A stretch of 64,000 bases of DNA from Octopus sinensis (Eukaryota), in assembly GCF_006345805.1 (NCBI RefSeq), contig NW_021836130.1, positions 186,001 to 250,000 of the forward strand, in the 5' to 3' direction. Numbering within the stretch: the stretch's first letter is position 1; each line of letters opens with the position of its first letter. Position numbers and translations under genes: made by a program. Below, in pieces: positions 2,334-47,496 of the stretch. The notes beneath the pieces are model-generated. The model ran no database searches. It saw only the letters and a program-made list of their open reading frames with translations, and was not told where the DNA came from.

Positions 2334-2403
2334 ATGAGACAATGAGAACGTACCAACAAGAAACAAATTATTTATACAATTTATTATAAATTAAAAAGTA
2401 TAT

Positions 2404-3249
2404 TTAAATTAAAGAATATTTAATCCAAAAATCATCTTTAATTATATCACAATTAAGTTCCACAATATTATCCCCATCTTTAACCAAGACAGTCCCCTTC
2501 CTATACAAGAGTGGCACATCGTTGTAGTTAATCCCAAAATCCGTGAACAAAATCTCATTCTTATCCCTGGCCAATGTCCCCTACAACTTAAAAATGTCCC
2601 CCCACTCGAAGGACCTCTTCACTCTCCCTTCTACTTTTCCCGCCTTGTTGAACCAAGGCCCAGAAGGCAGTGTTATATAAATTATTAATGTGGCCTAACA
2701 GTCAGTATATAACACAACAGTCGGCCTGCCTCCAGGAAAGTAGTCCCGCACATTGGCACACGTGGGCAGGCAGATCAGGCGGACAGTCGAAGACGGGGGG
2801 ACGAAGGAGGGTCGCCACCCCGAAATATTCAGGCCAGTGGAAAGACGTAGGCCGAACTGAGTGCACTTACCAATAGAAATAATTTTACTATTTTTTAATA
2901 TTATTTTACTATTTTTTAAATAAATAAATATATAATAAAAAACCATTTTCTTCGCTGGAAAAGCTGGCAATTTCGGTTGAAGAGAAAACTGAATTCGTCG
3001 CTCTGTCCATAGGCAAGGACAATATCTTTGAAGAGGTCGAAGAGGGAGGCTGAGGCACGTGACAATAGGGCGAGGGCACGTGGGTCGTTGGGCTTCTGGA
3101 AGTTGTGGTCTTCGGAAAATCTGTTTTTTATATGTTTTTGAGGACCTGTGGAAGGACTTGCCGTCTATTCGGGCTACTATGTAGGTGTTGTATAGACATT
3201 TGGGATCTTCTTCGAATTTTTTAACATATTCATATTTGGAACCAGCCAT
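2404..3249 (-). CDS. THG1L: tRNA-His guanylyltransferase Thg1
   Basis: [27 protein letters not shown]-terminus; [10 protein letters not shown] in an alternative frame; C-terminal [17 protein letters not shown]. Split by micro-introns. Confidence 0.9.
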
Positions 3250-3308
3250 GCACCACAAGAACTTGAAAATTTAAATTTTGAAAATGTAATAAAATATTTA
3301 AATTTGTT
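3250..3308. promoter_or_regulatory. Candidate ultra-short bidirectional promoter between THG1L and MTRFR
   Basis: Head-to-head start codons only 59 bp apart; AT-rich core flanked by TTCTTGTGG (minus strand) and TTGTT (plus strand). Confidence 0.6.
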
Positions 3309-3757
3309 ATGTTGTGTGCACGGCATTTATTATCTAACAATTTTATAATTTCCCTCAATAAAATAGCACAAAAATCAAAAATTAAATATCCATTAATCAA
3401 AGATAATGAAATTGAAATTAAAAAAATAAAAAGTTCTGGTCCTGGAGGACAGAACGTAAACCGACGGAACACCTGCTGTTTTATCAAGCACAAGGACACC
3501 GGAATCACAACCAAGGTTTATATTTATACCAAAAAACTCGTTATAGTGTCAAATATCGAGAAGTGCTTCTTTGAATTTAAAACAGGCCAAATATTTGTTG
3601 GCTGAAAAGTTGGATAATTTAAAAAATGGCCCTCAAAGTCTCAAAAATATCGAATATTTTGAAAAAATTGAATTTAAAAAGACTTAAGAAAGAGCGTAGT
3701 CATGAGAGAAGAACGCTTTTAAAGTCATACAAGACACTTATTGACAACCCAAGCTGA
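3309..3757 (+). CDS. MTRFR: Mitochondrial class-I release-factor-like rescue protein (C12orf65/MTRFR type)
   Basis: IKSSGPGGQNVN..CFIKHKDTGITTK, a 31-nt intron, then CQISRSASLN..A..LLAEKLD and a basic C-terminal tail. One apparent frameshift in an A-run near 3680. Confidence 0.8.
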
Positions 3758-3959
3758 ATGACGTCACTAGAATGTTCTAGAACTTTTCATAAGTGGTTAA
3801 CCAAACAATTATTTGTTTATTAAATAATGAATAAGTAAAACCATAAAAATACTTAGTCCAATGGGAACCCAGGTTTAATGACGTCACTGGAATGTTCTAG
3901 AACCACCAGTGAATGTTGAAAAATTTATTAAAGTTAAAAGTAATTTTGTGGTTAATATA

Positions 3960-4598
3960 AACAAAAACATTGAAATTAACCTGATTTTTTTAGCGTGGTT
4001 TATGATCTATTTATGGTTTCAAGAATCTTCGTTTACTAAATTAATTGGCTCAAATAATGAAATAAAGGCCAATTTGTCATATAATTTTGGGAAACAATTC
4101 TTTCTCTACTTATGCACCACAAAGAGTCTGTATGCTTAGAAAATTGTTGCTCAGATGAATATTTTAAATTAAAATAACGAAATTCACATCCAAAGCTTTA
4201 ATGGTTTAATCCAAGATAAATCGAGATTAGAAGCATCTGTAATTTATAATTTGTATCAATTAGTCTCAATAATTATTGCAAAAAGCTTGCACATAATTTT
4301 GGGGAAAGTTAATTAAACCGGCGGCTAATTACTTCTTAATTTTTAGGTGTCAGATGGCGAAGAAGTCCCCATTTTGAGTAAAACTGCATTGGAATTAATA
4401 CTTGCATTCCCAACTACTTATCACTGTGAAGTGTCCTGTCTGACTTTTCTAAAATGATATGCGAGATAGTTGTCGACATAGAGCCTGACATAAGTAAAAT
4501 TATTCACAACAAACAAGATCAGAAATCTCACTGAACTATTTTGATAATTTTCATGTTATTTTTATAATAAATATTCGAACATGTCTAAACCTCCCCTG
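3960..4598 (+). mobile_element. hAT (Buster/Charlie-like) transposase 3' remnant with probable terminal repeat
   Basis: LILAFPTTYHCEVS and DIEPDISKIIHNKQDQKSH* match the hAT C-terminal dimerisation region. Ends in ...CTCCCCTG (CAGGGG-type terminus). Confidence 0.6.
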
Positions 4599-4646
4599 AC
4601 GAGCCTAACCAAACAATTATTTGTTTATTAAAAAATAATAAAAGGA

Positions 4647-5657
4647 TTAATTTATAAATTCCAATCCCTCATACTTCGAATCAGCAAATTTAGTCTCTTG
4701 GTGCAAAATATTTCCCACCAAGTCAAAAATAAGAAAATACGAAGCCAAAACTCCCGCCATTTCCTCAGTCTTGACAGCCATAATAACCCTGTCCTCAGAA
4801 TCCGGCAGAAAACGGAAAGCAGAGAAGCCCCTCGTGCGACACAAATCCCCCACAATCACCACATCAACCCTCTCAAAGTCCTCATCCGCAATCAACAAAT
4901 AATTCCCGCCATTCGATGCTTCTCCCCCCTGCAAATACCCCTCCATACTCACAGCACGTGGCAGAAAAAACCAGTGATTGTGCACTTTACTCCACACAAC
5001 TGCCTCGTGAATCACAAACCCAGGATGTTCAATCAAAAGGCGGAACTCAAAGCCAAATATTTTTCCCGCCAATCGACGTGGTGCACTTGTCCATTTTTAT
5101 TAACAATTTTAATCCACATTGGGAACGAATTTAAAATGTCCCTGTCGAGTCAGTGAAGACCTTTCCGTACCCACCGACGTAGAGGAGCCCGTTTTTGACA
5201 GTGGACCACTCCCCCTTGAAGGCTGTGGATAAGCCATAGGGGACTTACGGGCAGGGGAAGACCCGTCTCCGTCAGTCAGTTTGACCCAGACAGCCACAGT
5301 GCTATTTTCGGGGAAGATTTGGTAGATAATTCCTGTCTTGTCGTCGATGGCCAGGAGTTTTCCGTGGAAGGTGATCAGGTCGGAAAGTTCCATTCCACGG
5401 TTTCTGTGGAGGATTTTTGAACATAGTTTTTGTGGGGAATTTTTAAAGTTGATTGAAAAAAGTTGGGATTTTGTATCCCAGATTAATATTCCTTCGAGGA
5501 ATTCGCTGCATGCAGACTGGCCTGGAAGGATTTGGATGTCTCTGTCAGAAACCATGGCTAGTTTTATACGAATTCGACGTTTGTAGGGGATATTGGTCCA
5601 TAGTTTGTATAATATTAAAGAAATAAGTACTATAAAGAGCATCAATAGGTTCCTCAT
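4647..5657 (-). CDS. CANT1: Soluble calcium-activated nucleotidase / apyrase
   Basis: N-terminal hydrophobic anchor; RGMELSDL..F.GKLL..DDKTGIIY; PGFVIHEAVVWS..HWFFLPR; TRGFSAFRFLP..AVKTEE; KYEGLEFI. Confidence 0.9.
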
Positions 5658-7329
5658 TTGATGGTACACAAGAACATTATTTTTAAATTATTTATTTAAT
5701 AATATATATTTGTTAAAAATAATAATTTAAAATTATTAAGAAATATTGAAACATGAAATATTTTAAATTTTAAAATTATGACGGCCATGGGTGGATTCCA
5801 CCAGACTGTTGGCTTAGAGATAAATTAGAATTTATTTTGAGCCATAAATAATATGAAGTCTTATTTGTCATTTTAAACATAAGTGAAGATCCACAAGAAT
5901 ATATTTAATTTTGAATACATAGGTTTGCCACATTAATAAGTAAAAACCAGCGATCCATTTAAAACAAATATTACAAATATTATCAAAAAACAACATATAG
6001 CAATAACAAACAATAAATTTTTAAAAAAACGTCGACAACCGGTATAGGCAAAAAAGTCAATTACAGGTGATGAGATTGTATACTTCATGCATAAAAATCA
6101 TCTTTTAAACTTCTTTATTAGACAAAGAAATAACAATTTGAATAACAGAAAGAATATTTGAGAATTCATGACTAAAAATCAACGTTGGTACAGAAGGTCG
6201 TTTCGTGTGTTGGCACGTGTAGGAATATAACTCTTTTCTGTTTGTCCTACGGAATGTGCTAAAATAATAATAATCATATCGGATAGAACAAATACAACAT
6301 GGTCATGTCTATTTAAAATAATACTTTATGTTTTTTTCGGTTTTATTCCACAATTGATAAATTCATAATCAAATAACAACGTCAGGAAGTAAGCGGCCAA
6401 GCTCGATCTGCGAGCGCATTTTATGTTTATTGTATAATTCGAGAAGTGAAGGATAGCTAATAGTTCCCACAGAATCACCACTGATCCTCAGGAACAGTCA
6501 TGACGTCTTTTTCTTTCCGAGTGTAGGTAGTCAATCAAGGATATTTGATTTCTTGGCAAACACAAACAAAGTGAATATATCTCACTATCTTATTTAGATA
6601 AAAGGCAGTTGAGTGTGAGTAGGCAAAGTGGGAGATAGAATATAAAGAGAGAAGCGTAAACAACATTGATATGATTTATTGGGCTAATTGAAAATTCCAG
6701 ACTATCCATTAGAAAACAGGGACAAACGCACCAATCAGTTTCTCATTCAGAAAATAATCAAATGAGACATAGAGTTAGCCACGATAATCTTAGGTGATTT
6801 TAGAATTTGATCGAAAGGCAAAGTATAGAAAAAAACTTCAAGAGTTGGGGATTCCGAGAACAACTTTGGGTTGGCGGTAAGCACACAGAAAGAACGGGAG
6901 ACCGGCGAACCCAATTTCAGAGGGATCTAGTAAAAAAGGTAAAAATATCATCCGAAAAAGACTTAAATTATTACTTTCTGAAGAAAATAAATTATAAATT
7001 ATAATTTTACTTTAAATTATTATTAGAAATGTTAAAACAGAAATTATTTAAATTTAGTTATATCATAATCTATTTAAATAACTGTAAATATAATGGCAAA
7101 CCAAATATGTTATAATATTATATTTTGTACTATTGTTACTATCGACATCGTTAATAAAGTAATTAGTTATTCCAATTTTAAATGGCATATATTTTGAGCA
7201 TCATTTTTCACCCTTTGAAAATGATGAACAGAAATCAATTATTTTGATATAATTATTGTTTCTCTTAAACCACAAATATTTGAATTTACTGGGGCTCCCA
7301 TTGTACTTTAGAAATAATTAATAACCAAA

Positions 7330-10300: not shown

Positions 10301-11625
10301 TTTATTTTTATTATTTAAGGATTTGCAAAAATACTTGAAAGTACTCATGAAAGATTCTGATAACCTAAAAATGTCTTTGGAATCTAAAAATTATGAGATC
10401 AAAAATTTGGAATCAGAATTGGAAGAGAAAAACAAGAAAATGAAAGTAATTTTAGTTATTTTTATTTAAAGGAGTTTGACACCCTCAAAGCCTCTAATTA
10501 CATGTTGGAGGAAGAAAAGTGTCGCCTTCAAACCAGTAAAAATAAAAATTTATTTTATTAAGCTTGCGATAACTTTAGCAGTCAACTGGATGGACTCATA
10601 TCTTCCCACAAAACAATGAAATTAGAGTTGATTAGCTTAAAAAATGAACTCAACACAAAAAACGAGGAAATATATGTACAAAACGCTATAAAAATGTTTT
10701 AGAATTTATGCCAAATGTCAGGACTTTTGAATGACGAATCCGACAAGTTGACCACCTCAAAGGATCTCCTCAAGGACGAACTGGTTAAAGTCAGACAGGA
10801 AATTGAACTTAGCCGATTCCGTGGAAATAAAGAAATTCCAGAAGAAATAAACACGGATTTGACATTTGATCAAAATTTGGGTAGTTTTTTGTTTATCTTA
10901 TGTTAGAAAATAATTGGTCAGCTTCAAAACCGCCCTTCCAAGCAATGTGGCTAAAGGACGAGAGCAGTGCTGTAATCAAGTATTTGGATGTTATATCTAA
11001 GTTGGAAGGGGACAACGAGGTTTGTTTTAAGTTGCTTGTTGTAGAAATTGAGATTTGATATTGAAAATGCGACTAATCAACATAAGGCATCTAGTTTTGT
11101 TGATTTTTTGTAGAAAAATGTTGATAATTTGAATAATCAAGTGCAAGATCTACAAAATATTGTGAAAAATAAAGAAAAGGAGGTCGAATTATTATCGAAA
11201 CGTCAAAAAGAAACAGAATCGAGTGAAATGATTAGCATGAAGGGAGACGATCAGTCCATAATCGACAAGATTCTGAATCAGTCGACAGAATTTTTGAAGG
11301 GAAGTAAAAGGGTTTGGGCAGGGATTTGATTTTTTAGGAATCATTGGCAGGAAGTATTGGAATTTCACTTAATGAAGTTTTAATTTATCATATATAATTT
11401 TAGGGCAGTTTAAATAAAAAATTAAATATCTCTTTGGATAAGCCAATTATCATGGCTAGCTTAAATGATGGTGGTAAACCTAAATCAAATGTGGCGGGAA
11501 AACAAAAAACTGGAAGCAACTTTGCTTATTCTACGAGGTATGTCTTTTTTATGTTTACTGATCAGTTTTTAAGAGAATTTACTAATTTAATTTCAGTTTG
11601 TTTGGCTAATACAAAAATTTTGTAA
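7330..11625 (+). CDS. Long multi-exon coiled-coil protein, function unknown
   Basis: Chain of E/K/L/N-rich heptad-like exons separated by ~25-33 nt GT-AG introns from ATG 7330. Contains an internal duplicated exon block. No recognisable domain; 3' end uncertain. Confidence 0.65.
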
Positions 11626-12660: not shown

Positions 12661-12739
12661 TAAAATCAGAAATTTTATTATTCGTTTCTAAAAATAAATA
12701 CATCATTTTACTTTCAAGTTCATCTTCTACAAACGAGAC

Positions 12740-16230: not shown

Positions 16231-16369
16231 AGAAAATGTCATTTTATGCAATTCAACAACAGTAAAACTGCCAAATTTTCCTGAAAAGTTTGTCGTAGAT
16301 TATCGACTTTCTATACAAATATGCTAGGAATAATATTTTACAAATGCAAAATATAAAAAAATTGATTCA

Positions 16370-17907: not shown

Positions 17908-19825
17908 TTAATTAGTAAATTCCGAAAAACTGTCAAACGCGAAATTGATTTCTGTGTCAATTTCTTCAGCAATTCCGTACAAGTGTAAAAACCCATGAGG
18001 AAATCCGTCAATGACGCGAAGCTGAACATTGTGACCAATATCATAAAGACGCTTTGCCATAAAATCGAATCATCCAACAATGAGTCATAACTCCCCACCT
18101 ATTCTCGGTTATTAGGGCTTAATACAAATATTCTAACAGGAGGCAATGTCCTCAGTATTTCATCACTGAAATTAGCTGGAGAGACCCAAGGGTCGTTTCT
18201 AATGTCCTCGTCCAGAATTTTGGATGTAACGTCGCCTATCCAATACCCCAGATTGTATTTGGACAACATGGAATCGATAGTGTCCGAATCAAAACCAGAA
18301 AATTGAGGAACTCGCTGGTTTTCGGAACGAATATCAACCTTCAAATATGCTGCCAAATTTTCAATAAAAAGAACCAGAAATAGCAGCATAACTTGACGAA
18401 AATGAGACAACAAAATCAACAACTGAGAGAAAACGAGAAGGAGTTGCATTCAATGACAGTGAAAAGTAAGGATATGCCCAAAAAAGCACATCTGGCTTAC
18501 GTAGACCTTCCATTATAGTTTTAGCCGCAACTGTCAACACCAAATTCGCACCCGCACTATCACCGAACATAATAATTTTTCGACCTCTAGTGCCTATATT
18601 TATTAATATAATTTAACATACCAAGAAATTTAAGATTTTCAAGGGCCCATTTGTAAGAATAGAAACATTGATCAATCGCCTTTGGGAATGGAGCCGTTGG
18701 AGCAAGCGAGTAGTCAACAGAAAGAATGGGCAAATTGGTAGCTCGACTTAACGCAGTCAAATATGTCTATAAATACGAAATAAGAGACCACCAAGTGACT
18801 GGCAGATGTATGGGCGATGAACCCTCCCCCATGGAAGTGAATTATTAAATCGTCAGAAATATTCTCCGACACACTTTCTTTATCAAAAAACTAATAAAAT
18901 CACAACAAATAGAGAACATTGTAAGATATAAGTCGGACAGACACGGGATCCCCCTCAGGAGGGTGTATCAAAAATAGGTCATTGATTTTTGGGGAATGAA
19001 AACCATCGAACAATTTATTAAATGAAAGGCGATTCAAATTGTTAAGAAAAACTTGAATAAGAACTAGAAATACAGTAAACAGTGGTTTTTCAGTTAAATT
19101 CCAAACATCAGTAACTGCCTGCAAGTTCACAAATTATTAAAAAAAGCAATCTATGTGAATAAATGAATAAAAACAAATTTCGATCTGAGAAAATAGTCGG
19201 AGTTGGTCAATCTTGCAATGTCGAACATACTTGATAAAAAATTACCTTTCGTCGCCGTATTTTTGACTCGACAGGCCACAAAAAATGAAGCCAAGAGATT
19301 TAAAGGTTTGTGGAAGGCACTTGGAAACTCGAAAATTATCAATCAATATTACAAAAAATGCCATTTTTGAGCGAAAAAATACAGTTTGGTCAACTTGGTT
19401 TATCTTTTGATTACTTGCTCCATTTGCCGAGGATTGGAGCTGCTTGTATTTGGAGACACGAGTAGGTCCATCACATCAGCCAGTTTTAGCATCTGTTCTA
19501 GAATATCAACGTGCTGACGTAGATTATTTGTTTGGGCTTTGCTGTTGTATTTTTCTGTGGATATTTCGACGGTTATGTCATAGATTGGTTTGATTGACTT
19601 ATCCAAAATAGAGAAATAACTTCGAAGGCCATTGAAAGGAATTGATGGATGACAGTCAAATTGAGGAGCCTTTTCGTAAAGGTCAAAAAGTTTTTTTTCA
19701 AGTTCCGTATCAAAAAAAATATTTTGAAGACAAGTGGAAATATGATTTGGTACTTTTTCTAAATTTTTATCATCTTTTATGAATTCGCGAATGCGAGAGA
19801 ATAACACAGCTGTATTTGAGGTCAT
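17908..19825 (-). CDS. LIPE: Hormone-sensitive lipase family protein
   Basis: HSL N-terminal NGLRSY; HFHGGGF oxyanion motif (~18820-18842); VDYSLAP; GDSAG nucleophile; DSLLDDS; PHGFL after correcting a T-run deletion. Confidence 0.85.
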
Positions 19826-27429: not shown

Positions 27430-29965
27430 CACAAAATAGAATAATAAAATTAATTAAAAAATTTAATTATTCAAAAAATAATTTAGTTTAATATTCTAAC
27501 ATCAAAGAATTTCATTTTTTAAATAAATAGACATTTAAGGTTTCCACCATAAGGACTAGCCTATAAAAAGAAAAAGGAAATAAGAAATAAAACGTTGGAA
27601 ATCACGTTGGATGTTATGTTCTGTGAGATACTTCTAAAAAGACATTTATATTTTTATGACCAATTGAAATTCAAACAAAAAGCTTTTGCTACTGCTTCGG
27701 AGTGTCTTTTTTTTGATTTTTGAACTCAACAACTTTGCTCATTTTACTGTCCTATCCGAACACCTCATTTTACTGTTAGAAGATGTGATCATCTATATGA
27801 CACTGATAGTTAGAAACGGAAATTTTAGATCATGTTATATGCTGATAAATAAAATTTAGTCAATCGAATAATTCATTTCCCTAATTAATGTCACCGGTGG
27901 TCTTATATTTTTGTGTTGTTAATACATCTGAGCCTAAAAGTCAGCTTAGTGCCGCCGTATTGAGTAGCAGTTTCCGCAAAGCACAGTGACCGATATTTTC
28001 TGAAAAAGCCAGCTAACCAAATTGTACATTTGGATAACTTTTTTTATTTTGTAACAAATTCCTTACCATAAATATGGATGTATCCCACATCTTTTCAGGG
28101 TATTTTAAAAGAACTTTTCCCGATACACCGAGGAGACCCTAACCCTAAAAATGCAGCGATCAATCACTTCTATTTTTAGATACCACAAACAATGTATTTT
28201 AGATACCGCAAACAGTATACACCAATGGTAAAATCAGTCATATCTTTTGGGATATTTTTAAATAAACAAATGTTTCAGGAAAGTATGGGATTCTTAAATT
28301 TTACAACAATGAGGTTGGTTTTTATATTTTAACTCTTTCGTGTCAATTTCAAATTCTTTATCCTAAAAATAAGAAAATGCGAACGACAATCAAAATTTCA
28401 GTAAAAAGTTAAATTCAACGTGCACGGACATGTTTTCTCATTTGTCATTTATCCTGCCATTGGAAACTCAGAAGTAATCTGCTGTAAAGGCAAAAACAGG
28501 ACTTGACAACTACTAACTTCTGACTTTATAAATGACATCAGAAATAAGATCGGCTTCCAAAAGAGATGCCACGTGCAATATGATGGCTTTGGTAGAAAAT
28601 CTTGATCGTCATAATGACATAAGAATCCACAATTATTAAATGGAATTTGTTTTTCTACATTTTCATTCATTATTGGTTTATGTTGACGACTTTTATAAAT
28701 CGGATTATGATTGATGAAAGCTTTGGATATTGACATAAATTTTATAATCTAGAAAATAATCCTGATAATTGGAACTAGTTTGAAAAAGGCAAAATAACTG
28801 AAAAAATATAATTTATGATTTTAAATATTGAAAGTGAGACTCAAATTATTTTTGGGAAATCAAAAAGAAAATTTCGTAATTAATGTACGTAAAATAATAG
28901 AAAAAACCAATATTCTCTTATTCTTGTAATTATTGTTTTTCATAAAATGATTTTATGACAGCAATATTCACGTCTATTGAGAAATAAATGAATTACCTTA
29001 TTATATTTTTACAATTGGCCAATTTTAATTGGAAGTCCATTGTGTTTCAACTATAAAAAACAATTCCCCGACAAAATACACTCCACTGCCAGTTACTATA
29101 AAGTACTAGTTTAATTCAAAGTGAGAAAGACCAATCATTTTTAAAGATATAATACATCTACTTATTGAAGAAAGAATTAAAAGTTTTAATTAAGACCATA
29201 TGAGTTAATATTATTAGTGATATAATATGATTGACTCAATTTTTATATAATCAAAAATGAATGTATTTTTGGTAAAATAAATATTTTTTAGGATATAAAA
29301 TGGGTATTTGCACGTGCACAAATCAAAGCGGTTTGATTGATGTTCCAGCAATTGATAAATGATATTGTCTTCATTCCTTGTTCAATATTTTAATAATTAT
29401 ATAGCGTTTCCTATCATCTACCATCTTTAATCGTCAATAAGCGAATGTCGATTTGTGGCTTAATACTTGCATTGTTGGCATATTTACTTCAATTCTTTAA
29501 TGCCTTGGATACGAAAGTAATTCAGATTTTGAATTGGGTCAGCCTATTGTTTCCACTTTCCGTCATCCCATTAATAAAACCTCAATAACAAAGAGTTTTT
29601 CTATTCAGCTGTGATTTATTGCCTAAAATCCAATATTTATGGCTCCCTTTTGTTCCCACAAGTGCATATTTCAATACCGCACTTAAAACCAATTTAACCC
29701 AAAAAATTATTTTACGTGTAGAAAAACATTAAAAATTCCCCGAATATTTGATGTTGAGATATTTTAAAAAAGGGGATGAGCTTTAATTTTACGGTTGAAT
29801 GTTTAAAGACATATTTTGTTGAAAAATAAAATACGCGTCGTCAGGGCGGCGTATAAACGCGTTATTTCGACTATTCAAGAGAACAAATGGTCATTGTTTC
29901 GCAAACAAAGTTTGAGTGTGGAGATTTTGTTGCTCTTATTATTTTCATAATAATTTATAGAGTAA

Positions 29966-30895: not shown

Positions 30896-31595
30896 TAATA
30901 TTTCTGTAGTTTCAAATGGATCACACTCACCACTAATGTGCTATGCAATACTAGGCTTAGCAAAACTATTTTATTTTATACGATTTTACTAACGGTTTTA
31001 CTACAATTTTGTTTTATTTTTCTATGTACAATTCATTTTTAGACCAAATTTCCATAAAAATCTTATTCATTGTCCATAAATAGAAATTATGAGGGTTAAA
31101 TAATTCTTGGGCGTTTTTTATTAACTAAAACAAAAAATGAAATATTTGAATGCAATAAACTCTCTCGAATCCGTCATTTTTTAAATAAAAATACAAATTT
31201 CTTAGGGAAATTCTCGAATTCCCCCAAAAAAGAAATATTTGAATATTTCCAAAAAGACACAAAAATTATTTGATCAAATTTCTAAACCACATATCAAGTA
31301 TTATATATGGGACAAAGTCAGTAAGCACTGCTAATAAGAAAAGTTAACAACTCTGTCATTATGAGCCCGATTAATACTAAATTCTAATAGAACTGATTCC
31401 CAGAGGCTTTGTAGCAAGTTTGTAGTGATGGCTTACTGTGGGGGGTGAAGTAGATATTAAAAACAATAAGAATCAGAATAATTTTTCTATTTTTTTTTCT
31501 ATGGTTAATATTTGAAGTTTTTTATTATCTTTAATATTTTTAAATACATAATTAAAAACCTGAGTTTCAGTTGTTGTGCGTAGTTGTTCGAAATA

Positions 31596-33800: not shown

Positions 33801-34879
33801 TTCCTTGAGACAAGAAGTTAAAATATTCCGGCCATATTGAAAGTTTAGGCTTTCCAGTTTTGTGATATTTCACACAATTTTTTCCAAACCTGTTTAATAA
33901 AAAAGCTTATTTTTTATCAAATTAATAAAAATGGACTATTTTCATAAATCGGAATACCCATGGAAACACAAGTAAATAATGTGCGAGGCAAAGAAGAACG
34001 CTGAAACGACTTATAAATCCACTTACTGCATTCCAAGTCAAATGCCGGGGTAAATGTGAACTAACTAAGCCATGGCAGCTACCTAGGACACGTGCCGACA
34101 GCAAAGTATCGTTTTGGGGACACATTTGGGAATATAAGTGCGGATTATTTTATTTATAATCGTCTCAAATGCGTGGAGGAGTCTGGGAGTATTAAAGGAG
34201 GGTCGATTCCCACGTATTTCACAAACAGACCCAACCTTGTTTGGGAAGCACGACAAAACACTCGAAAAGCTAATTTTCCTAAAAATTATTTCGACTTTTT
34301 AAATTCGTCCCCGAAAAAAATGGCCGAAATGAACGAATTTTATGAGGTTTTGCTATTTTTTGAATTAAATAGAAAGTACAACAACACAGAATGTCGTACA
34401 AGGACAAATGCCGCAGAGGACCAGGACTTTGTCACTTTTCCATTCCCGACAACTATAATAACAGAACACCCTATTAACTATTAAAATATACTAATATCAA
34501 TTTTCTGGGTTTTCATAAACATCATAAATATTTTTTTTATAAACTAAAAAATATTCTCAGAATAAAATTAAGAAAGTTTCAACTGTAAATTAAAAAATGG
34601 TTTTTCATGTGACTTAATGAAAATAGCCAGCATGTGAATTATAAATTATAATTTATTGACAAAGTGTAACCACAAAAAAATTATTAAAAAAATAATGGAC
34701 AAATTATTTAAAAAATAAAAATAAATTAAAAAATTGTTGAACATTTAGAATAAAAAAAAAAATTTATAAAAAAAAAATTTAGAATAAAATAAAACTTAAT
34801 CCGAAAAAAATACACTATTTTGTGGTATCTAATCAGTGACTTGATGTCATCAGTTGACAAATCTAATCTAAAATACACA

Positions 34880-36194
34880 ATGGCCAAATTAGGCCTCCTC
34901 CACCACTACTATCCCCTCAAAAGTAAAATCTCCGAGTACACCCACCCTCTTATACCAATAGACATTCTCAACTGAGTATTAAACTCATCAAATCAGTGGG
35001 AATAAACAAGAATTCTGCACGAATATTAATAAAAGCAATAAACCAATCCACATCTGCTGATTCCGTCATTTGTGTGCCACATGAGGACATAACATACACA
35101 CGCCTCATCGGCAGTGGACAGAGCACGACTGTCCATGAAGGATTTATGGCCGGAATGAGAGTGGCAGTCAAATCTATTGACACAAAACCCTCCAAACTGG
35201 ACAGAAATATGTTCATTAGTCTGGAACATGCCAATTTAGTCCAGTTAATAGGCCTAACAGTCGAATCCCCACTCCTCATAATCACCACATTTATCCAAGG
35301 GGGGACCCTTAGAGAATTTCTGAATGATCAACCCATTCTCCCCCCAATAAACAGACTCCTACACTTTTCAAGACAAATAGCCAGTGGAATGGCCTTTCTA
35401 CATATCAATAATATTATCCATGGCTCTCTCTGTGCCAGCCAGGTCCTTCTTTCCCCAGCAAATGTGGTCAAAATAACCGATTATTACCTCCCATGTGACT
35501 TCTCTCTCAACAACCCAGCCTGGCGAGCCCCAGAACTTCTAGAATGTTCTAGAATAACCAAAGATGGTGACGTGTGGTCATTTGGAGTGACTGTTTGGGA
35601 AATATTTGCACATAAAACACCCCCCTGGGAAGGCTTTAGTCCCCAAGAATTGTTGGTGGCACACAAAGAGAAGACACTCCCTAAGAATGACACCTGTCCT
35701 TTCCCCTTAGAAGGCATCCTTAAGCGGATTTGGGTCTCAAGGAAGAGACCTTCATTTATATCATTAATTCTACAACTAAATGATGTAATGAGTGGTGTAT
35801 TGAGTGTAGATGTGTATTCCAGTGGTTGAGGCAAAGGACAGGTGGGAGAGGGGGCTGAAGGTGACAGCACGTGACTGTATTGCTGTGATTGATTGGAGGG
35901 ATGACTATGAGTGGAGGGGACAGAATCTCAGAACTTTGCAAGTCGGGAATTTTCCCTCCAAGCTTGTGAGAATGGTTAAGTCAGTCAATCTGTTGACTTT
36001 GTTGAAGTTGGGAGGATTGTTCCGGGGACTGTGTATCATGCAGGACACAGAGATATTGATGGGACTGGGTGGGGACAGTCATCACATGTTGATAGTTTGT
36101 ATATCAGGTCTCAGGTTCGTCCCAGTAGTATTCGAGTGAGCTTGTTTTGTGACTATAATAGATGGCACCACAAGAATCATCTGATGAATATTGA
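34880..36194 (+). CDS. TNK2: ACK/TNK2-family protein (kinase-SH3-CRIB order) with a degenerate pseudokinase domain
   Basis: Kinase fold (IGSG, VAVK, HANLVQLIG, AWRAPE, DVWSFGVTVWEIF), then SH3 WRGQNLRTLQVGNFP and CRIB-like YHAGHRDIDG..WG...VDSLYI. Introns 34936-34961, 35785-35809 and ~36136-36161. One apparent frameshift near 35990. Confidence 0.8.
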
Positions 36195-36427
36195 TATATT
36201 TATTTTATTTTAGTTGTTTAATTTTTATATAAATTTTTTAACTTTATATTATTTATTGTAAAAAATAACTACATTAAAATAAAGAAAAATTGTTTATTTT
36301 AAATTTTAATAAAGTGTTAATTTAATTTTATAAGTATTAGTAAAAAGTAAATATTATATTAAAAAGTAATAAAATATATTAAAAATAAATAAAACAATTT
36401 TATTAATCGTAGTGGTACAACAAAAAT

Positions 36428-38066: not shown

Positions 38067-38097
38067 TTTTTGTATATTCGGTAACAAAATAAACAAA

Positions 38098-38695: not shown

Positions 38696-39025
38696 TATTT
38701 TATCAAAGCAAAAATCAAAAAAATTAGTTAGATTAATAATTATTCTCTTTTTTCATTCATAATGAAAAATTTATTTCAGATATTCAATCATTTTAAACAG
38801 CCGTTAAATATGATAATTAATTAACAATTAATGATAAATTCATGAAATGCCACTTTTATTAAAAAAATAAGCGCTTATCTGGTTAAAAAAACTGTATTAT
38901 TAATTTAATTTCATAAAATGCAGAAATCTAAAAAACAAATAAGACAAATCAGAGATCCTTCACATCAAACGTCTATTCTGGTTCTACTCGAATTTTTGGT
39001 AGGAAATGAAAATAGCATTGTATTA

Positions 39026-39045
39026 TGTCACAGTCCGAATAAAAT
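39026..39045 (+). mobile_element. Solo terminal repeat of the Ginger-like family at 51365-52010
   Basis: TGTCACAGTCCGAATAAAAT is identical to that element's TIR. Confidence 0.6.
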
Positions 39046-39245
39046 CGACACCGAATAATTACATTCTTTAATTTTACTAAAATTAAACTTGTTCTAACCC
39101 TCTTCTGATATAGTTTTTTGTTCTTTGTGTAATTTCATTATAAAATCCGCGACTCTATACTAAATCTTTGGGTATTTAAAAGCTATCCACTCTCCATTAA
39201 AGATACATGAACAAATTATAGAAAAGCATTTAAAACAGAATGAAC

Positions 39246-40275
39246 TTAGGTCATATATTGGTTAAAAATTGTCTTTATTTGGGCCAACTCGGCTTCCTGA
39301 GATTTGAAAATCAGAAAACCTTGGCATTGAGACAACTCACCAAATAGGCATTCTTCATCTCAATCTTGCGATAATTTTCCTCGACAGCAGCCACATCAGT
39401 GCTATGTTGATTACCCATTTCACAAATAGCCGAATTAGCCCTACAACCATAATACACCCATCCTAACTCCTCAAGCTTATTCTGCGCCTTCTCCAACAAC
39501 AAATTATATTTTTCTGTCAGTTTTTCTACTTCTTTGTTCAACAAGCCATTCGTCGACTCCAGTTCTGACCGAGCCTATCGAATAGACCCCTCTCCCAAAC
39601 TTGCTCAGACTCTACCAGGAGACCACGAGCCTTCTCAAATCGGTCGTGGAGGTTATGAAATGAGGCTTCCAGTGCCGTGTAGTCATTCTTCATAAATTCC
39701 ACGTTTTTCTTCAAATTGAGCTCAGATTCTCGCCATTTCGCAACCTCCGACTCATATTTGTCTATTTTTTGGCAAAAAAACTCCAAACCCATGATTTCAA
39801 GGGTCGTTGATTTATACAGTGCTAAAAGCTGGTCTGCCAGAGTCCTTTTAGGGACATTCACCTCAGGAGACTGCTCCGGGAAGTCAGAAATGGCGGGAAA
39901 TTCTATCGAATTGAGGTTTGTGCTGGAAGCTATAAAAGGATCGCCATTTTCTGGAGTAGGAATGTGGAGAGGGTCAAACTCCCGGAATATTGAGCTGGAG
40001 AGGGGCTTTGGGGACTACAGAAATGCTTAGTGCCCTCATACTTGTATCATATTTGTGTCTAAAAGATTATCTTATTAAATAAACCGTCGTTTTGTGTGTC
40101 TACAAGAATATGTCGAGTACTAAAATGTGATATTAATTAATTGCCTATCTTCCCGACTGAGGGGTGATTTGTAGTTGAATGATGTGATTTTGAGGTTAGT
40201 CTGGCTGTCTGAAGTTTTGTTTGACTGGTCAGACTCCAAACAGTTGTTTAGGCAATCTTCTGTTGAATTTTCCAT
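39246..40275 (-). CDS. TACC-domain-like coiled-coil protein
   Basis: Low-complexity S/P-rich N-terminus, then NDYTALEASFHNLHDRFEKAR..EKYNLLLEKAQNKLEE..ANSAI..ELAQIKTIF, resembling the C-terminal TACC domain. Micro-introns. Confidence 0.6.
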
Positions 40276-42089
40276 ACCACAACAAGAATAAGGGAATTTT
40301 ATTTTAAATATTTGATTAAAAATTATTCACAAAAATTTAATTTTAGTTATTTGCTTTGAAAAAAAATTGTTTTTTTATCTCTTTCTTTTATTAGTCAAAC
40401 ACTAAACTGAATTATTTCAAGAGTCTCCAAGATTGCCTACTCTGTTGGTCCATGAAGTAAAAATTGCTTTTCTGTGGTTTTTGACCTGATAGTTCTCATA
40501 AATAAAAACCCGGGCTTAAAAAAGAAACTTTCACAGTTTTAATGTCATATTGCTTCTAGTCGATTTTATTTATTTTTAAGATTTTTGTTGTTTTGAGTGA
40601 ACTCGTGTCTGGATGAAAATGTACCCGAATTTTAAAACTTCGTAATGATTAAAATTATACTAAGTGTTTTCGAATGACTTTTGATTATCAAATTGGTTGA
40701 GTAATATTAAAAACAAGATACACAAGTTAGTAGTTATTAACGGAATTAGATTTTATCAGTATTTTTGGTTTGTTTTTGGTCGCGTTATTAAGAGTAGTCC
40801 ATCCCTGATTGGCTTATTTTTTAACGAGTTACAGTTATTAGGACTTTCTCGATTCTGTACTATAAATTGGTATTTTTGAGACTGTGAACTCATTTAGGCA
40901 GAATATGTTTTTTCTAATTGCAGAAAGATTAGTTTATTTATTACTCAAAAATTCATCTTAATGACGCTGGTTAACCAATCAGCTGGTGCTCGTTGTCTGA
41001 GAGAAGGGTATTTATAAAGATTATCCTGATTAGTTCTGGTTTTGGGGGTGAGTCTCTCTCGAGTTTGTCAAAAAGTAAGTTGGTTTTTTATTATTTACAT
41101 CCTGGATACTTTTCTGTATTGCAGGATCTGCACTTTTTTTGGTTTTTGAGACTGAATTTCATTTGTTTATCATAATTGAAGATTCCACCTTTCTGTGGTG
41201 TTAAATTGACAACTGGCATTAACGCTACTTTTGGTAAGGCGCTAGCATCTTATCAACTATTTCTTCTAGATAATGTTTGAGCTTTTTTATTTTAATATAA
41301 GAACCAAAATTATGTGGGCGGTGATTTGAATTTTCACTTGATATCAAAAATAAAATGTTTGTCAGAAAACAAGTAATTTGTTCCGACAGTAAATAAACTT
41401 CAAAAAAGTTAATCAAATTTAAATTGACTAAATTTGACTCAGTTAAAATCAGGATGTAAACGTGTGTAAGAAAATGGCTATTAAAAGAATTAAATCGAAC
41501 AATTATGGATGGATGTGACCATTTGTGTTCTCGAGAATAAACGATTTAATAAAAAAAAGATTATAAAAACAAATATCGGATTAGCCTCTTTGGAGATTTA
41601 GTTAAACAATTTATTTTTATTTTATAGAAATTTCAAAAGAAAACCTCGATTCGATCGATCAGTAATGAAATTTTTACTTAATATAAATTGCAAAAATGAC
41701 ATAATAAGTAATATAAATTAAACTCGCCTTGTTTAAACATGCGCTAAAATATTTAGTGCATTTTAATCAGCAACCTAAAATTCACGTATTAGAAAAATTG
41801 TTTGAAATACATTAACAATACAAAACAACGACATGAATTACTAATACATTTAAATTAAACATTAAAACCCGGATTTTCAAAATAAATCAATTTTTAATTC
41901 TTTCATATTAAAAATCAAAGAAAGATCCAAAAACACAAATAAAAAAGACAATACATTTTTTATTTGTAATATAATTGTGAATCCTAAATTCGACAATTTT
42001 GCTTTTATTGTGAACAGTATTATTTAACATTCAATCGTCAATTTCATTTAAATAAACCCTAATCTAATATTTTCCAAATAAAAAAACCC

Positions 42090-43740
42090 AAGCATGGGCC
42101 TAAGCTTGAAGGACAAGTCCGAAATGCTAATTTAATTCTATCGACTGCCGGAGACACATTCTCGACCAGATCCATCGCACGAAGATGCACTCCACCCCCC
42201 AAACCTGTGCCGTCAGTGTACAGCATAAGCATGCCAATAATGAGTAGAATATGACATTGATGGGTTGTTGTTTCTGCATTATGGGTGAATACAACTCACT
42301 TGCCACATTAACAGACAAATCGAACTTCTTCATTAACGTGCAGGGACCAGTTCTTAAATTCGTTATGAATTTTTTTCATAAACAAGTTAAAGATCTTTTT
42401 CTGACACAAAGTCTGTGTCATATAATTTCAATTGGCATTAATTCTCCAGAAATAGTTCTGAGAGCTTTCAGTAGACTCCAGGTATATGATGAATAAAACT
42501 GGAGATAGGTAGTCCCCCTGTGGTGTTCCAACCCAACCCATAGAATAGAATTCAGTATTGGGGAATAGAAAAAGAATCAGCCTCTATTATCTCTATCAAA
42601 TCCGGAACCAAATCTCCTGAACAAAGCTGATTGCCTTTTCACTCAAGGAACCAGAAGTCTCACCTGCGAATAAATAAAAATTCAGAATGTCTTTGGGAAT
42701 CAATTTCGTTCACAACATAGAACAATATTCCAATAAATTTAATGTGATAACTAATTTTATGACTTAAACAATTGTCAAAAATCAATAATATTTTCCTGTC
42801 TAACTTTATGTCTATATCTAGCAACAGTAAATTGAATTCATTTGAATTCATACACAAAGTTTGGTTATATGAATATACAAAATAATAAATGATTAAAGTT
42901 TTGGAATTTTCTGGGTTTTTTGAATTTTTAAATAAGGTTGAAAAAAGTGGTAAAAATATAAAAAATGGTAAAATAGAAAAACATAAGAAAAAAACAGAAT
43001 TTCAAATTTTTGGTAAAAAAAGAGTGGCAAATCATAAAGGTGATAAATTAGAAAGATTTGACTGTAAAACAGAATTTCGAATTGTAAGAGTGGTAAAAAG
43101 TGACTCTTCAATTTGTCTAAATTTATAAAAACATCAAAAGTATTTGCTGACCCCTGACCTAGGCGATCTTGTGACAACTGTTTTACTTGGAAAATATCAG
43201 ATTCGGACACAATCAAATTATTAGATTAATATTTAGGCCTTCCCCTGAATTCAGTAAACTCTTTTATTATGAAGTAGATATTACACGGTGTTTTTTCATC
43301 CATTTTTAGAATGTGTTAAAGGGCCCTTCCCCGCTTTTCCCCACATCAATGCTTATGGGCCGCGAACTGCACATCTTGTAAAGACTTTCATTTGATACTC
43401 TTCCTGGGAAAAATGTTACCGATTCTTCTTAACTGGATTCTTTTCACAGAATCCAGCGACATGAATAACTTTTTGGTATATCTTCAGGTACCGGAGTTTA
43501 ATTAGACACAATTTTAATATCAGGAGAATCTTTCTGCTCGATGGAAAAAGAATAGCTGAAGGGTTTATTTTTTTTGACTAAGCATTTTCTTTTTATTGAC
43601 TTAAAGCTTATTTCCGCATGTCTGCTCTCACAGGCGACGCCCGCGAATCAAGATGGTTTTTCAAGCGGATATCCCTCGCGATAGTACGCTCTAATTATTT
43701 CTCGATCGCGTCGGCTTCCCGTCCATGAAGTTTAGTTTCG
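42090..43740 (-). mobile_element. Cluster of RTE-like RT remnants and a pogo DDE fragment
   Basis: GTPQGDYLSPVLFIIYLE (~42480-42540); RKILLIFDNCLSH (~42760-42800); IQLRRI..RVSNESLY (~43380-43440). Confidence 0.55.
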
Positions 43741-43903
43741 GATTACTTTTATTATGTAACTCAACTTGTGAAAAAAAGCTTATTTTAAGTACTGAGAATG
43801 ATATACAGTGCTGGTGGAAAAAAACCGGTTTTGCAGTTACTAAGTTTTTTTAGCTTATAGCTATTAATTTTCCAAATGAAATAAAGAGTTTGAAGTTGAT
43901 TAT

Positions 43904-46900
43904 TATTTTTTTTTTTTTTTTAAACAAAAACAAAAATTAAACGAAAATTAAAAATTAATTGATATTCTCTCTTCTCTTAGGGGAACTACTCCGTTGACCG
44001 GTCATGTCTTGACACCTCTCCTCTTCGTATTGCAGTAAGAAAGCAGACTCCTCTGGCAAGTCAACTGACACTCCCAGTTCTTCTCCTCTAGCGATAAGAC
44101 TATCCGTTTCCTTCTCAATTTGGTAGTTGTCGACCTTCATGCCATGTTTGTATTCAACGACCATGCTCTCCAGGGTTTTCTTGATTGTCACTGATTGAAT
44201 GTACGCCTTAGTCGGGACCTCTATATTCAACTTTTTCATGTAGGACTTATAGAACTTGGTCACTACCCCATCCCATGTCAATACGACAGGGACTATCGTG
44301 ACTTTTGCCTTGTGAATCTGTGCCAATTCTCCAGCAAGTAGATCATACTTGTGGAGTTTCTCTACTTCGACTTGCTTTAACCTGTCCTGGGATGTGACCC
44401 CGACTTCGATTATCGTTATCTCATTTTTCATTTTATCAAGCACGAAAATGTCTGGCTTGTTGTTTTTAACTTCAATGTCGGTCTGCAACGTCATGTCTAC
44501 TCGTATTTCAACACGACTATTTTCCACGACCGACTGGACTGAGTGTGCTTTCAATTTCTTGCATTTCTTTATTCCGTACTGACGACAGACGTGTAGATGT
44601 ATGCATCTGACAATTTCATTGTGTCTTCGCATGTATGACCCGTGAAGCATTCTGCTACATCGAGTAGCTAGGTGATCCACGGTTTTTCTTGCCGAGCCGC
44701 AATGGTTACAATTAGGCTTTGCCTCTCCGAAAAACAAATTGCGATCCTGGGCCAAGCAATATAGTGCCTCGGCCTTTGGGCCATTGTTCCCATTGGCTAG
44801 CCATACATTGGACTCCACGATATCAGCACTCGGTTCCTGAATGCATTTAAACAGCGTTGAATGTATCATCTTAGATTTAATGGTGTCCATTAGTCTTTTC
44901 TTCTGGCACTCCTTAATAAGGTTTACATCCAATTTTGATTGGTCTTCCAGATTGTACTTGAGAGCGAGAAATCTTGCAATCGTGGTCATATGTGTTTTCT
45001 TTTCTCTCAAGACCCGCAAGATTCCTGCTCTTCTGAGGCACAACGAGGCTTTTCTTTCAAGGTCGGAGAGAAATTGGAGCAGGATGCATTCGCTCTTATT
45101 GGAAATTGAGATTAAGCCTCTTCCAAAACCATTTCTGCCGAGATATAATCTTTCTTTATTAGCGGGCTTCAGATGGATTCGTAAAGTAGTTAGAATGCGA
45201 CGAATTACCAATCAATGGCATCAAACTCACTCGGTTCAATGTCGATCAATCCGATATAGTAGTTGTAGAGAGAGAGTGCATATTCGTTTATCGCTTTAAA
45301 GAGGTTTACTGCACTTAACTTTGTTTTTGCAAGACTCTCGATTCTCTCTTTCACGTTTCGAGCAATTGTTTTCATTACCTCGATTTTCTTGACATCACTT
45401 CCTCTATCCTCCAAGACTCCCAGGTATCGATACCCAGCACACCCATCCAGACATTTTGTATCTTTCACATAGTCCAGGTTAGTCGCAGACTTTTCCGAGT
45501 TCCTCTTGAGGCCAACGGCATCAAAATATTCATCGACATCTTCCATCATTTTTAGAACGGTGTCTTCTTTCTCAGCAATTATTTTCAGGTCGTCAATAAA
45601 CAACAAATGGTTTGTTGAATATGAAACCGTGAACGGGTCATTTTGACCTATACGCACCTTCGGGAACTTCATATTCAAGCTCCTACTTAACGGATCCATT
45701 ACCAGAGTGAAGAGTTGTGGAGAGAGTGAGTCTCCTTGTAAGATTCCTCTTTCCAATTTTACAGTTCCAATTCTCTTATTGTTAAGTGTCAAAATGACAT
45801 TCCAATTTTTGATTAAAGTTTTCACAAAATTTGTGATCCAATTCGGAATTCCAGACTGATCAAGCACTTGACATAAGAATTCATGATTGACAGAATCAAA
45901 TGCCTTTCTGACATCGATCCACGTTGCAAATAAGTTATTTCCATACTCACTATTGACACACTGGTTTATTAGTGCTTGTTCCTTTGCGCCTTGGCATTGC
46001 CTTCTAGCTCCCAGCTGATTATCCGAGATAAGGTTAAACGCTTCGATATAGTCTGTAAGCTTTGTATTCACACATTTAGTGACAAGTTTGTACAATATAG
46101 GCATGCAGGTAATCGGCCTTAAGTCATTTGGGGAATGGCACTTTTCATTTTTTGGAATGAGGTATGTTACTCCTGTGTAAAACCACTCAGCAGGGGAATA
46201 GCCTCCGTTCACAATTTTAAGGATCTCATCGCACAAATGGCCATGAAGAGCTTCGAACTTTTTGATAAAAAATCCATAAACTCCGTCACAACCCGCGGCT
46301 TTCCAATTGGGTACACACTGGATAACATTCTTGATAAAATCAGTTTTCACGTCACTTGGAAGCTGTTCAGCTCCAGTAATATGCTTACCAACAATAGCTT
46401 TAGGAGCACGGTTCTCCTCTTTCTTCCATACGCCCTTCCAGAAAGATAGACACTTATCTTCTGGGACTTGACAATCAGAATCTTTGTTTTCACAGTTCAG
46501 TCTTCGATAGAATCTTCTCCTGTTTAGTTCAAAACAGAAATTATCTTGTCTAAACGACTTTCTGGAGCGATAGGTTGAGATTTTTTTCTCCATAATTTTG
46601 ACTCTATCTTCAATAAGACTAGATACGCGTGCCAGCTCTCCCTTTCTGGATTTTTTGTATCCAAACGAGCATAAAATGTTCAGTGTCTTCTCTTTTTCGT
46701 CTTTAGATTGCTGGCCATTAAACTTATTAACGAAAGTTAGATTTTCTCTAAGTTTGGAAATCTTTCTTTCCGTATCCTCAAGCCATGTGCTTTTTGTTAG
46801 GGGTTGCCTCGTAATGTTTTCATATGAGCATTGCCCGGCATAAATTATATCCGTGATTTCATTTATGCTTGCAGGCGGAGAAGATAATATATAGTTCGAA

Positions 46901-47496
46901 ATCACTGCATTAATTGCGACAAGAACATCAGTCTTTAGCAATTTATACGGAATCTTCTTTGTGGGCATTCTCGCATTTCGTGGGATTGATTTAAGTTCCT
47001 GAATTTGGAGATTAAACTCTTCCTTGCATTTACCATAAATGGAGATTTCTGTCTTTGGCAATAAGTAATCTGAGGTATCCACATTATTTCGACTGCCACA
47101 GCCATTAGAGCAGGGCTTTACATTCAGTAAGTTTTTCACATCAGAGACACTCTTTTGAGTGAGAAAGCGGACGTTGAAACATTCGGCAATAAGTCTCCAT
47201 CCTCCGCGAGGAATTCTGCCAAATCGTCTCTTCGCTGACTCCACAACACCAGAAATCCATTTGACTTTGTCGTTAGAGTGTTCCTCACCGATCACCGATT
47301 TAAGAGGGATTAGATGGGGTGAGACATGTTCGGTAGGAGAGTTTCCACAAATTTCATGGGGATCATGTAGCCCCGAAGACTTGCTTCTTACCAATAGTTG
47401 TTGGTTATCTCTAATATCTTTTGTAAGAGAGCCCTCAGGATTTGCTTGCAGACTGGTGAAAACAGACATACACGACACCACAAGAAATTATTTCAC
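43904..47496 (-). mobile_element. Apparently full-length single-ORF RLE-type (R4/Dong-like) non-LTR retrotransposon
   Basis: Poly(A) tail = T-run 43906-43921. 14-bp target-site duplication TTGAAGTTGATTAT at 43890-43903 and 47497-47510. Confidence 0.92.
43955..47469 (-). CDS. Retrotransposon ORF: Myb-like N-terminus, reverse transcriptase, CCHC finger, PD-(D/E)xK endonuclease
   Basis: NWKAAGCDG, LRPITC, IDVRKAFDSV, GILQGDSLSP, LFIDDL, YRYLG; CNHC..H..C; RHNEIV; KPDI..IEV..KLHKY. The two ORFs are joined by a single missing T at ~45210. Confidence 0.9.

Follow-up and report, generated by a model that had tools for sequence, protein, structure and literature searches.

A short word, TTCTTGTGG or its variant TTGTTGTGG, was found at the edges of AT-rich spacers upstream of genes and just inside the 5' ends of long interspersed nuclear element (LINE) retrotransposons in a 64,000-nucleotide stretch of DNA deposited under Octopus sinensis (contig C12601 of assembly G000, positions 186001-250000). 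This whole stretch is called the window here, and coordinates count from its first letter unless a contig is named. The word is strand-specific, lies at the gene-proximal edge of AT-rich spacers, and shows a modest but reproducible enrichment ahead of an ATG with an open reading frame (ORF). We give about an even chance to the view that it is a putative transcription-start-proximal core-promoter element, which the LINEs would carry as an internal promoter. The motif itself is real and links gene starts to LINE 5' ends; it is probably a lineage-specific start-site element that serves a minority of genes.

The element in the window is a retrotransposon without long terminal repeats (non-LTR, LINE), as demonstrated by its reverse transcriptase (RT), poly(A) tail, target-site duplication and dispersed copies. 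It occupies 3593 nt of the minus strand (43904..47496); its A16 tail lies at 43906-43921, its reading frame is broken into two parts at about 45208, and it is bounded by the 14-nt duplication ATAATCAACTTCAA, the 5' copy of which lies at 47497..47510 and the 3' copy at 43890..43903 (both minus strand). The retrotransposon bounded by a target-site duplication that had been reported from the letters of the window was thus confirmed. The RT domain matched RVT_1 of Pfam (E 1.6e-31), and its nearest solved structures in PDB were L1 ORF2p and R2; no endonuclease domain of LINEs was detected by Pfam at E <= 0.05. The 5' leader (47470..47496, minus strand) contains TTCTTGTGG at 47486-47478 and runs up to the ATG at 47469.

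A search with the first 697 nt of the element retrieved 15 copies of this family, hereafter family 1, which were 96-100% identical, had distinct flanks and were located on 14 contigs. The leader TTCTTGTGGTGTCGTGTATG was present in all 15 copies (with one mismatch in L034) and was directly preceded by AAT in 14, and the flanks above it were unrelated. The shared 5' end of family 1 therefore lies 3 nt before TTCTTGTGG. The motif is indeed part of the 27-nt leader described in the original prediction, whereas only the last 20 nt of that leader (AATTTCTTGTGGTGTCGTGT) are common to the other 14 copies. Between the duplication and the shared end, the window copy has an additional GTGAAAT, which had a loose match in a few copies only (GTAATAT, GTGAAAAAAAAA). 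Folding of the first 180 nt of the LINE RNA revealed nothing unusual (z = -0.68), and the LINE 5' end had no Rfam match at E <= 1, so a 5' ribozyme or structured leader was not indicated.

Two more single-ORF LINE families, with ORFs of 1185 and 1168 codons, were identified in contigs of the same organism. In family 2 together with its 74% subfamily, the leader pattern was present in 24 of 30 loci, representing 18 distinct flanks, and four of the 24 had variant words. The leader reads (GT)GTTGTTGTGGTGCTGTTCATG in family 2 and GTTGTTGTGGTGTTGTGCATG in the subfamily, and the copies of both diverge 3-6 nt before TTGTGGTG. Family 3 had (A)GTTGTTGTGGTGTGTGCATG in 27 of 30 loci with 25 distinct flanks, some copies sharing up to ~13 nt more upstream. 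The three leaders have in common TTGTGGTG and a G/T-rich, A-free make-up, and the sequence on either side of TTGTGGTG differs among them. As the LINE flanks diverge just upstream of the word, the word sits just inside the 5' ends of the elements: it begins 3-6 nt, and in some copies up to 13 nt, downstream of the shared 5' terminus of the three families and is kept there at the frequencies given above. The ATG follows 5-6 nt past TTGTGGTG in all three families. The 50 nt upstream of the LINE copies were 79-82% AT, compared to about 65% for the genome. In the comparison with other copies that had been proposed as a check of the prediction, the word was present in family 1 (15/15) and in the two further families, including the 74% subfamily of family 2, and was missing from a ~70% identical subfamily of family 1.

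Among the genes of the window, all the motif copies listed in the original prediction were found again at their coordinates and strand, those at genes on the coding strand, as were the extra copies at 5891-5899 and 36165-36176, and the claim that the motif marks the end of an AT-rich spacer also held. The 60 nt preceding the five best sites were 82-97% AT, and the distance from the motif start to the first ATG at these sites was 12-29 nt. On the minus strand, TTCTTGTGGTGC (3250..3261) stands immediately before the ATG (3249) of the Thg1 gene (THG1L), TTCTTGTGTACC (5663..5674) starts 17 nt before the ATG (5657) of the apyrase/CANT1 gene, TTCTTGTTGGTAC (2350..2362) starts 29 nt before the ATG at 2333 of a gene labeled UBE2V, and TTCTTGTTGTGGT (40276..40288) is followed immediately by the ATG at 40275 of a gene labeled TACC. 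The plus strand carries GTAGTGGTAC (36409..36418), starting 19 nt before the ATG (36428) of a WD40 (WDR33-like) gene, TTTTGTGGTA (34818..34827) ahead of the ATG at 34844 of a tyrosine-kinase (ACK-like) gene, GTTGTTGTGCG (31570..31580) at a spacer edge with the ATG of a gene labeled VBP1 26 nt on, and TTGTGGTTGTG (54766..54776) in the upstream spacer of a kinesin/KIF21-like gene. A weak version, TTCTATTTTGTG (27430..27441, minus strand), abuts the ATG (27429) of STT3. At 5891..5899 (minus strand), the extra copy of TTCTTGTGG lies upstream of the CANT1 copy by 225 nt, and an ATG with an ORF of 34 codons comes after it. The names UBE2V, TACC and VBP1 are labels taken over from the original prediction; the Pfam check covered the other genes, and confirmed Thg1, Apyrase, STT3, Tyr kinase, WD40, RT and Kinesin/KIF21A. 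TTCTTGT was counted 32 times in the window as against 19.2 +/- 3.9 in dinucleotide shuffles, none of 100 shuffles reaching 32.

Contigs of a close relative (runs X3-X6) are without the 25-35 nt introns of the window genes, and hence look RNA-derived. The ends of two of these intron-less contigs, 5662 and 5656, coincide with the CANT1 motif and ATG or fall just within them, which is a weak hint; contigs cannot reveal transcription starts. A weak TGTTGTGTGCAC upstream of the gene for a GGQ/RF-1-domain protein was discounted, being 86-97 nt from the ATG and holding an upstream ATG. A loose end in TTGTGGTGCG at 19713 proved to be diverged coding sequence.

The occurrence of the word at gene starts was then analyzed beyond the window. 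The window contig probably derives from a dicyemid-like parasite assembled along with its host, as judged from intron size, GC content and the place of the contig in the assembly. Because the 2.7-Gb assembly is mostly host, the statistics were confined to contigs of the organism with the compact genome (25-35 nt introns, about 35% GC), namely 1.45 Mb from seven contigs in which repeats and one copy of a 98% duplication were masked. As the first exons are short, spacer edges were used in place of ORF starts: 1017 AT-rich spacers, defined independently of ORFs, gave 2034 outward edges, and an edge was classed as start-like when an ATG within 85 nt opened at least 30 codons. In a first test, with LINE copies still included, TTGTGG was counted 16 times, with 4.7 expected, within 40 nt ahead of 390 ORFs that were each at least 100 codons long, and GGTACG, GGTACA, GTGGTG and TGTGGT were also near the top. 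Motif searches by expectation maximization (EM) started from unrelated seeds converged on TTGTTGTGGTAC / TTTTTGTGGTGC. In an unbiased test of 6-mers at 379 start-like and 1655 other edges, TCTTGT, TTCTTG, TTGTGG and CTTGTG took ranks 1-4, all overlapping the one 9-mer TTCTTGTGG (TCTTGT, 22 vs 36 edges, p=3.7e-4). TCTTGT was still first when the window was left out (17/355 vs 34/1577, p=0.007). The pre-specified words TCTTGT, CTTGTG or TTGTGG were present outside the window at 27 of 355 start-like edges (7.6%) and at 67 of 1577 others (4.2%), corresponding to an odds ratio (OR) of 1.86 (p=0.008). The five control word sets (reversed, reverse-complement, complement and two scrambled) were depleted instead, with OR 0.40-0.75. 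The motif discovery against controls that had been proposed earlier thus yielded an enrichment, which was modest, and the window was richer in the motif than the rest (6/24 start-like edges with a motif word).

Strand and orientation were also informative. The 9-mer TTCTTGTGG occurred 24 times and its reverse nine times; an ATG within 45 nt opening at least 30 codons was found for 8/24 copies of TTCTTGTGG, 3/24 in reverse-complement orientation and 0/9 of the reversed word. Full 9-mers stand 11-47 nt before the ATGs of unrelated ORFs on C9300, C8697, C7755 and C2292. At transitions between AT-rich and non-AT-rich sequence, the counts with the AT-rich side upstream and downstream were 24:6 for GTGGTG, 29:12 for TGTGGT and 43:22 for TCTTGT. 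Over 34 sites at genes, the first motif word preceded the ATG by a median of 16 nt, with a range of 6-58 nt. The -20..-1 bin upstream of 332 ORFs contained TTGTGG eight times as compared with 1-6 times in other bins, which is in the right direction with small counts. Three further counts contributed little. TTGTGGT followed by ATG and an ORF was found at 18/163 sites, compared to 7.5% pooled over 35 permutations and 6/159 for the reverse complement, a control that discriminates poorly since other G/T permutations belong to the motif family. Mirrored motif pairs on both edges of a spacer were not a general feature, with one observed and about three expected among the 1017 spacers. The whole-assembly count of TTCTTGTGGTGNNATG (26 vs 23 for the reversed control) was uninformative, as the 2.7-Gb host dominates and the spacing missed the THG1L site.

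Two side observations came from the same 1.45 Mb. CACGTG-TCTTGTT-ATG, that is, an E-box-like hexamer, the motif and a start codon, recurs at three loci, with TCTTGTT-ATG at a fourth (C9300, C7755, C6303 and C2292), which may reflect a small gene family or a repeat that escaped masking. Other 6-mers were one-sided at the AT-rich to non-AT-rich transitions, namely TTACCG (15:1), CGTTAG (11:0), GCCGTG (9:0) and TACCGG (8:0), and these may be further promoter or 3'-end signals.

The full-length termini of dispersed non-LTR elements are by standard reading the RNA 5' ends (PMC4748587). If the LINE termini are read in this way, transcription would start a few nucleotides upstream of the word, and the word would be transcribed and start-proximal; lying within the first ~5-20 nt of full-length LINEs, it is located where an internal, transcribed promoter element must be. 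We infer that the LINE termini mark transcription starts, and that the word would act in DNA and have promoter activity. In such a mechanism, RNA polymerase II would begin transcription where the AT-rich spacer ends, on its last bases and a few nucleotides upstream of the word. Either the basal machinery or a lineage-specific factor would recognize the word in DNA, and the word would set the start position. Transcripts would then have leaders of roughly 10-40 nt that are poor in A and lack an upstream ATG. The LINE would retain the word through retrotransposition since the word is transcribed, and a LINE landing in AT-rich DNA would rebuild the layout of a host gene, with AT-rich spacer, word and ATG in succession. 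A bolder version can be put forward tentatively and is, in our estimate, doubtful: that the ~20-nt leader around TTGTGGTG by itself makes up the whole internal promoter in at least three LINE families, and that the same word is the start-site selector of the lineage itself, replacing the initiator (Inr) and TATA at the edges of AT-rich spacers and giving leaders of 10-40 nt, so that a single core-promoter code, specific to the lineage, would have been reached by convergence in host promoters and retroelements alike.

Several results weigh against a start-proximal promoter element. The original prediction of a core-promoter or 5'-leader element used by the LINE as an internal promoter was sustained as to strand specificity, enrichment and location at LINE 5' ends; the exact words, however, stand at just 7.6% of the start-like edges outside the window, and no single word survives there the correction for 384 words tested. 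TTGTGGT with up to one mismatch and TTGTGGTA with up to two mismatches were not significant outside the window. EM on the larger set gave only the low-information TTTTTTGTTG (4.4 bits), present in ~63% of start-like edges. The start-like class itself is a crude ORF rule, which overlooks short first exons. Orphan copies have no ORF behind them, as is the case for 16/24 occurrences of the 9-mer and for two copies in the window, TTTTTGTGGTTA at 34667..34678 (minus strand), mirrored on the opposite edge of the spacer of the ACK-like gene, and TTCTTGTGGTGC at 36165..36176 (minus strand), on the opposite edge of the WDR33 spacer and facing the 3' end of the kinase gene. The ~70% identical subfamily of family 1 has a leader of 13-14 nt, (G)AAGTGTGACGTGT, without the word at four independent sites. 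One RNA-like contig of the relative crosses the entire spacer between THG1L and the GGQ gene; if it is a single transcript, which contigs cannot prove, the start would be upstream of the Thg1 motif. As a separate observation on the wordless subfamily (L036-L042, on C12459, C10089, C10202, C10883, C1794, C6303 and C7755), a GACGTG resembling the downstream core-promoter element (DPE) abuts its ATG.

The word might alternatively act in RNA, as a 5'-leader element for the translation, stability or export of mRNAs with very short A-free leaders, and the LINEs would keep it as a part of their transcript. We consider this unlikely. The word would be inside the LINE transcript if the LINE termini are RNA 5' ends, its near-fixed distance of 5-6 nt to the ATG in the three LINE families and the median of 16 nt in genes would suit such a role, and leaders free of A can hold neither an upstream ATG nor a stop. 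In genes, in contrast, with their spread of 6-58 nt, the word keeps no constant register relative to the start codon, orphan copies occur at spacer edges without an ORF, and the lack of a special fold in the first 180 nt of the LINE RNA also argues against it. Moreover, the reversed word, of equal composition, is not enriched, so A-avoidance alone is insufficient. Another view is that the word has no function at the gene level, the gene copies being an effect of composition or selection (a T/G-rich transition from spacer to coding sequence, picked by eye in one window) and only the LINE leaders being real and family-specific, which we judge to be rather improbable. Such a view would account for the word being about three times denser in the window than in the other 1.39 Mb, for the modest p-values outside the window (0.007-0.045), which fail multiple-test correction, for the absence of enrichment of degenerate versions, and for the EM on the large set returning only a low-information T-run plus GTTG. 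It does not fit well with the fact that the hypothesis was fixed before the test outside the window, which gave p=0.008 with five depleted control sets, nor with the top four 6-mers overlapping one 9-mer, the 24 occurrences of TTCTTGTGG against nine reversed ones, and the full 9-mer before the ATG of independent genes on four other contigs. Pure chance or composition is unlikely given the control words and the 6-mer ranking.

The core site of Runt-domain factors is TGTGGT, and the word could thus be the binding site of a sequence-specific activator, such as a factor of this type, acting as a proximal regulatory site of one gene set and not as a start-site selector. TGTGGT lies within many copies, including 6/24 start-like edges in the window, and the parasite appears to encode a Runx-type factor: Runt-domain (PF00853) exons, separated by a gap of ~54 nt and scoring up to 75.6 bits, were found on small contigs (L231-L235; C8853:127533-127889 and C12605:47862-48219), one of which also carries the LINEs, and no host copy of the domain was among the candidates scored. 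Human L1 likewise has RUNX3, YY1 and SRY-type sites in its 5' untranslated region (UTR) (PMC3286893). We nevertheless hold a Runx-type site to be improbable, since the most discriminating words, TCTTGT and TTCTTG, fall outside the Runx core, TGTGGT is missing at CANT1 (TTCTTGTGTACC), at UBE2V (TTCTTGTTGGTAC) and at many TCTTGTT sites, and is thus not found at all the copies taken as functional, and a core-promoter element accounts better than an activator site for how strictly the word keeps to one strand and for where it lies at LINE termini. A spliced-leader relic, offered in the original prediction as an alternative, would mean that the word came from a trans-spliced leader copied into the genome via retrotransposed trans-spliced RNAs. 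A short 5' sequence common to LINEs and some genes is superficially leader-like; even so, the genome itself encodes the word in continuity with the ATG of intron-containing genes, no AG acceptor precedes it at three of the four strong sites, and both flanks of TTGTGGTG vary among the three LINE leaders, all of which make this origin highly improbable. Rfam gave no family for the window or for the LINE 5' end, with no genome-wide search made for a spliced-leader RNA gene, and the literature searched contained no study of trans-splicing in dicyemids.

A start-proximal promoter element shared by LINEs and genes would have parallels in known systems. The internal promoters of the Drosophila non-LTR retrotransposons jockey, Doc, G, I and F share start-site and downstream core-promoter elements with TATA-less host genes (PMC4748587). 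In both cases a short element in the first bases of full-length copies is found also at host gene starts, which in Drosophila gives promoter autonomy after insertion (PMC4748587). Unlike in Drosophila, the putative element has no match to the Inr, and the whole leader before the ATG is only ~20 nt. The DPE as described in PMC4748587 (RGWCGTG-type, about +28 to +34) was not found at its place; GTCGTG or GACGTG occurs only in family 1 and its subfamily, at about +15 to +20 from the shared terminus, the core CGTG being at about +16 in family 1, and the leaders of families 2 and 3 contain no CGTG. The word also resembles the Pr77 hallmark of trypanosomatids, a 5'-terminal sequence conserved across different retroelement families and proposed as an internal RNA polymerase II promoter, whereas Pr77 is 77 nt long with experimentally established activity (PMC4748587), and the parasite word is an 8-9 nt candidate that is also present at ordinary gene starts. 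In the human L1 5' UTR, a YY1 site near the 5' end is needed for accurate initiation, next to RUNX3 and SRY-type sites (PMC3286893); the likeness lies in a factor site near the LINE 5' terminus that positions initiation and in the Runx-type core TGTGGT as part of the word. The LINE leaders of the parasite are only about 20 nt, in contrast to human L1. With the TCT initiator of 5'-terminal oligopyrimidine (5'-TOP) genes, the word shares the pyrimidine-rich TTCTT start and the tie to transcript 5' ends of housekeeping-type genes (PMC6954239). It differs in that a G breaks the pyrimidine run after CTT, many copies have G for C (TTGTTGTGG), and the LINE termini put the RNA 5' end upstream of the C. 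Human L1 has a 5' UTR of about 900 nt, and the consensus is YYC+1TTTYY for the TCT initiator and YYANWYY for the metazoan Inr. TTCTTGTGG and TTGTTGTGG, judged by eye, fit neither of these two consensuses. As the sequence matches none of Inr, TCT and DPE, we do not file the word under any of these, and regard it only as a putative element that would work like one of the first two.

If the word marks transcription starts, it would give a first way into how promoters are organized in an animal parasite that is highly reduced and evolves fast; no dicyemid promoter study was found in the literature searched, and 'promoter' occurs 0 times in the Dicyema genome paper. It would then aid in placing gene starts and in recognizing full-length, potentially active LINEs in such genomes, and would be a further case, beyond insects, mammals and trypanosomatids, of retroelements and host genes with a common minimal core-promoter code. 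A complete LINE promoter of ~20 nt would, if true, be among the shortest LINE promoters described.

The assignment of the window to a second organism rests on its genomic setting. The window lies within a contig of 251,728 bases in an assembly of 2.72 Gb and 13,516 contigs, of which it is not typical, with GC content of 0.28-0.43 and genes spaced a few hundred bases apart. GT..AG introns of 31, 34, 31 and 32 nt are skipped by the contigs of the close relative, and a 25-nt stretch in the Thg1 gene, missing from the contigs of the relative, reads as a minus-strand GT..AG intron. Introns this short are reported among animals in PMC13644364 only for myxobolid myxozoans and dicyemids. The genome of Dicyema japonicum is described as 67.5 Mb with 36.7% GC, a mean intron of 38 bp and many LINEs (PMC6736024). 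Three LINE searches gave 119 rows, all on contigs C1153 or higher and none on chromosome-scale contigs. For an STT3 exon, no protein was closer than 66% identity, and nematode, flatworm, rotifer and sponge proteins were the top named matches. The window, together with many other small contigs, would thus represent a second organism, which matters for the annotation of the host genome.

Some further features of the contig were also observed. A direct duplication of ~60 kb with ~98% identity relates window positions 1755-64000 (C12601:187755-251728) to C12601:51414-110001 and reaches the contig end, as if two haplotypes or strains had been merged into a single contig. A segment of 5.1 kb (43767-48874) is missing from the duplicated copy, and the 3.6-kb LINE lies inside or beside another insert of ~1.5 kb, with a 142-codon ORF at 47824-48249 on the minus strand. 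A duplicated segment contains two copies of TTCTTGTGGTGTCG (C12601:137663 and 152752, plus strand), which corresponds to the first 14 nt of the family-1 leader word, without the remaining LINE. Thg1 on the minus strand is arranged head to head with the GGQ / RF-1-domain gene on the plus strand (window 3249-3758; ATG at 3407, 31-nt intron at 3514-3544), the two ATGs being 157 nt apart. Next to this pair, at ~3760-3910, a short AT-rich spacer is flanked by the inverted repeat TTCTAGAACATTC(T/C)AGTGACGTCA, with TGACGTCA resembling a cAMP response element (CRE).

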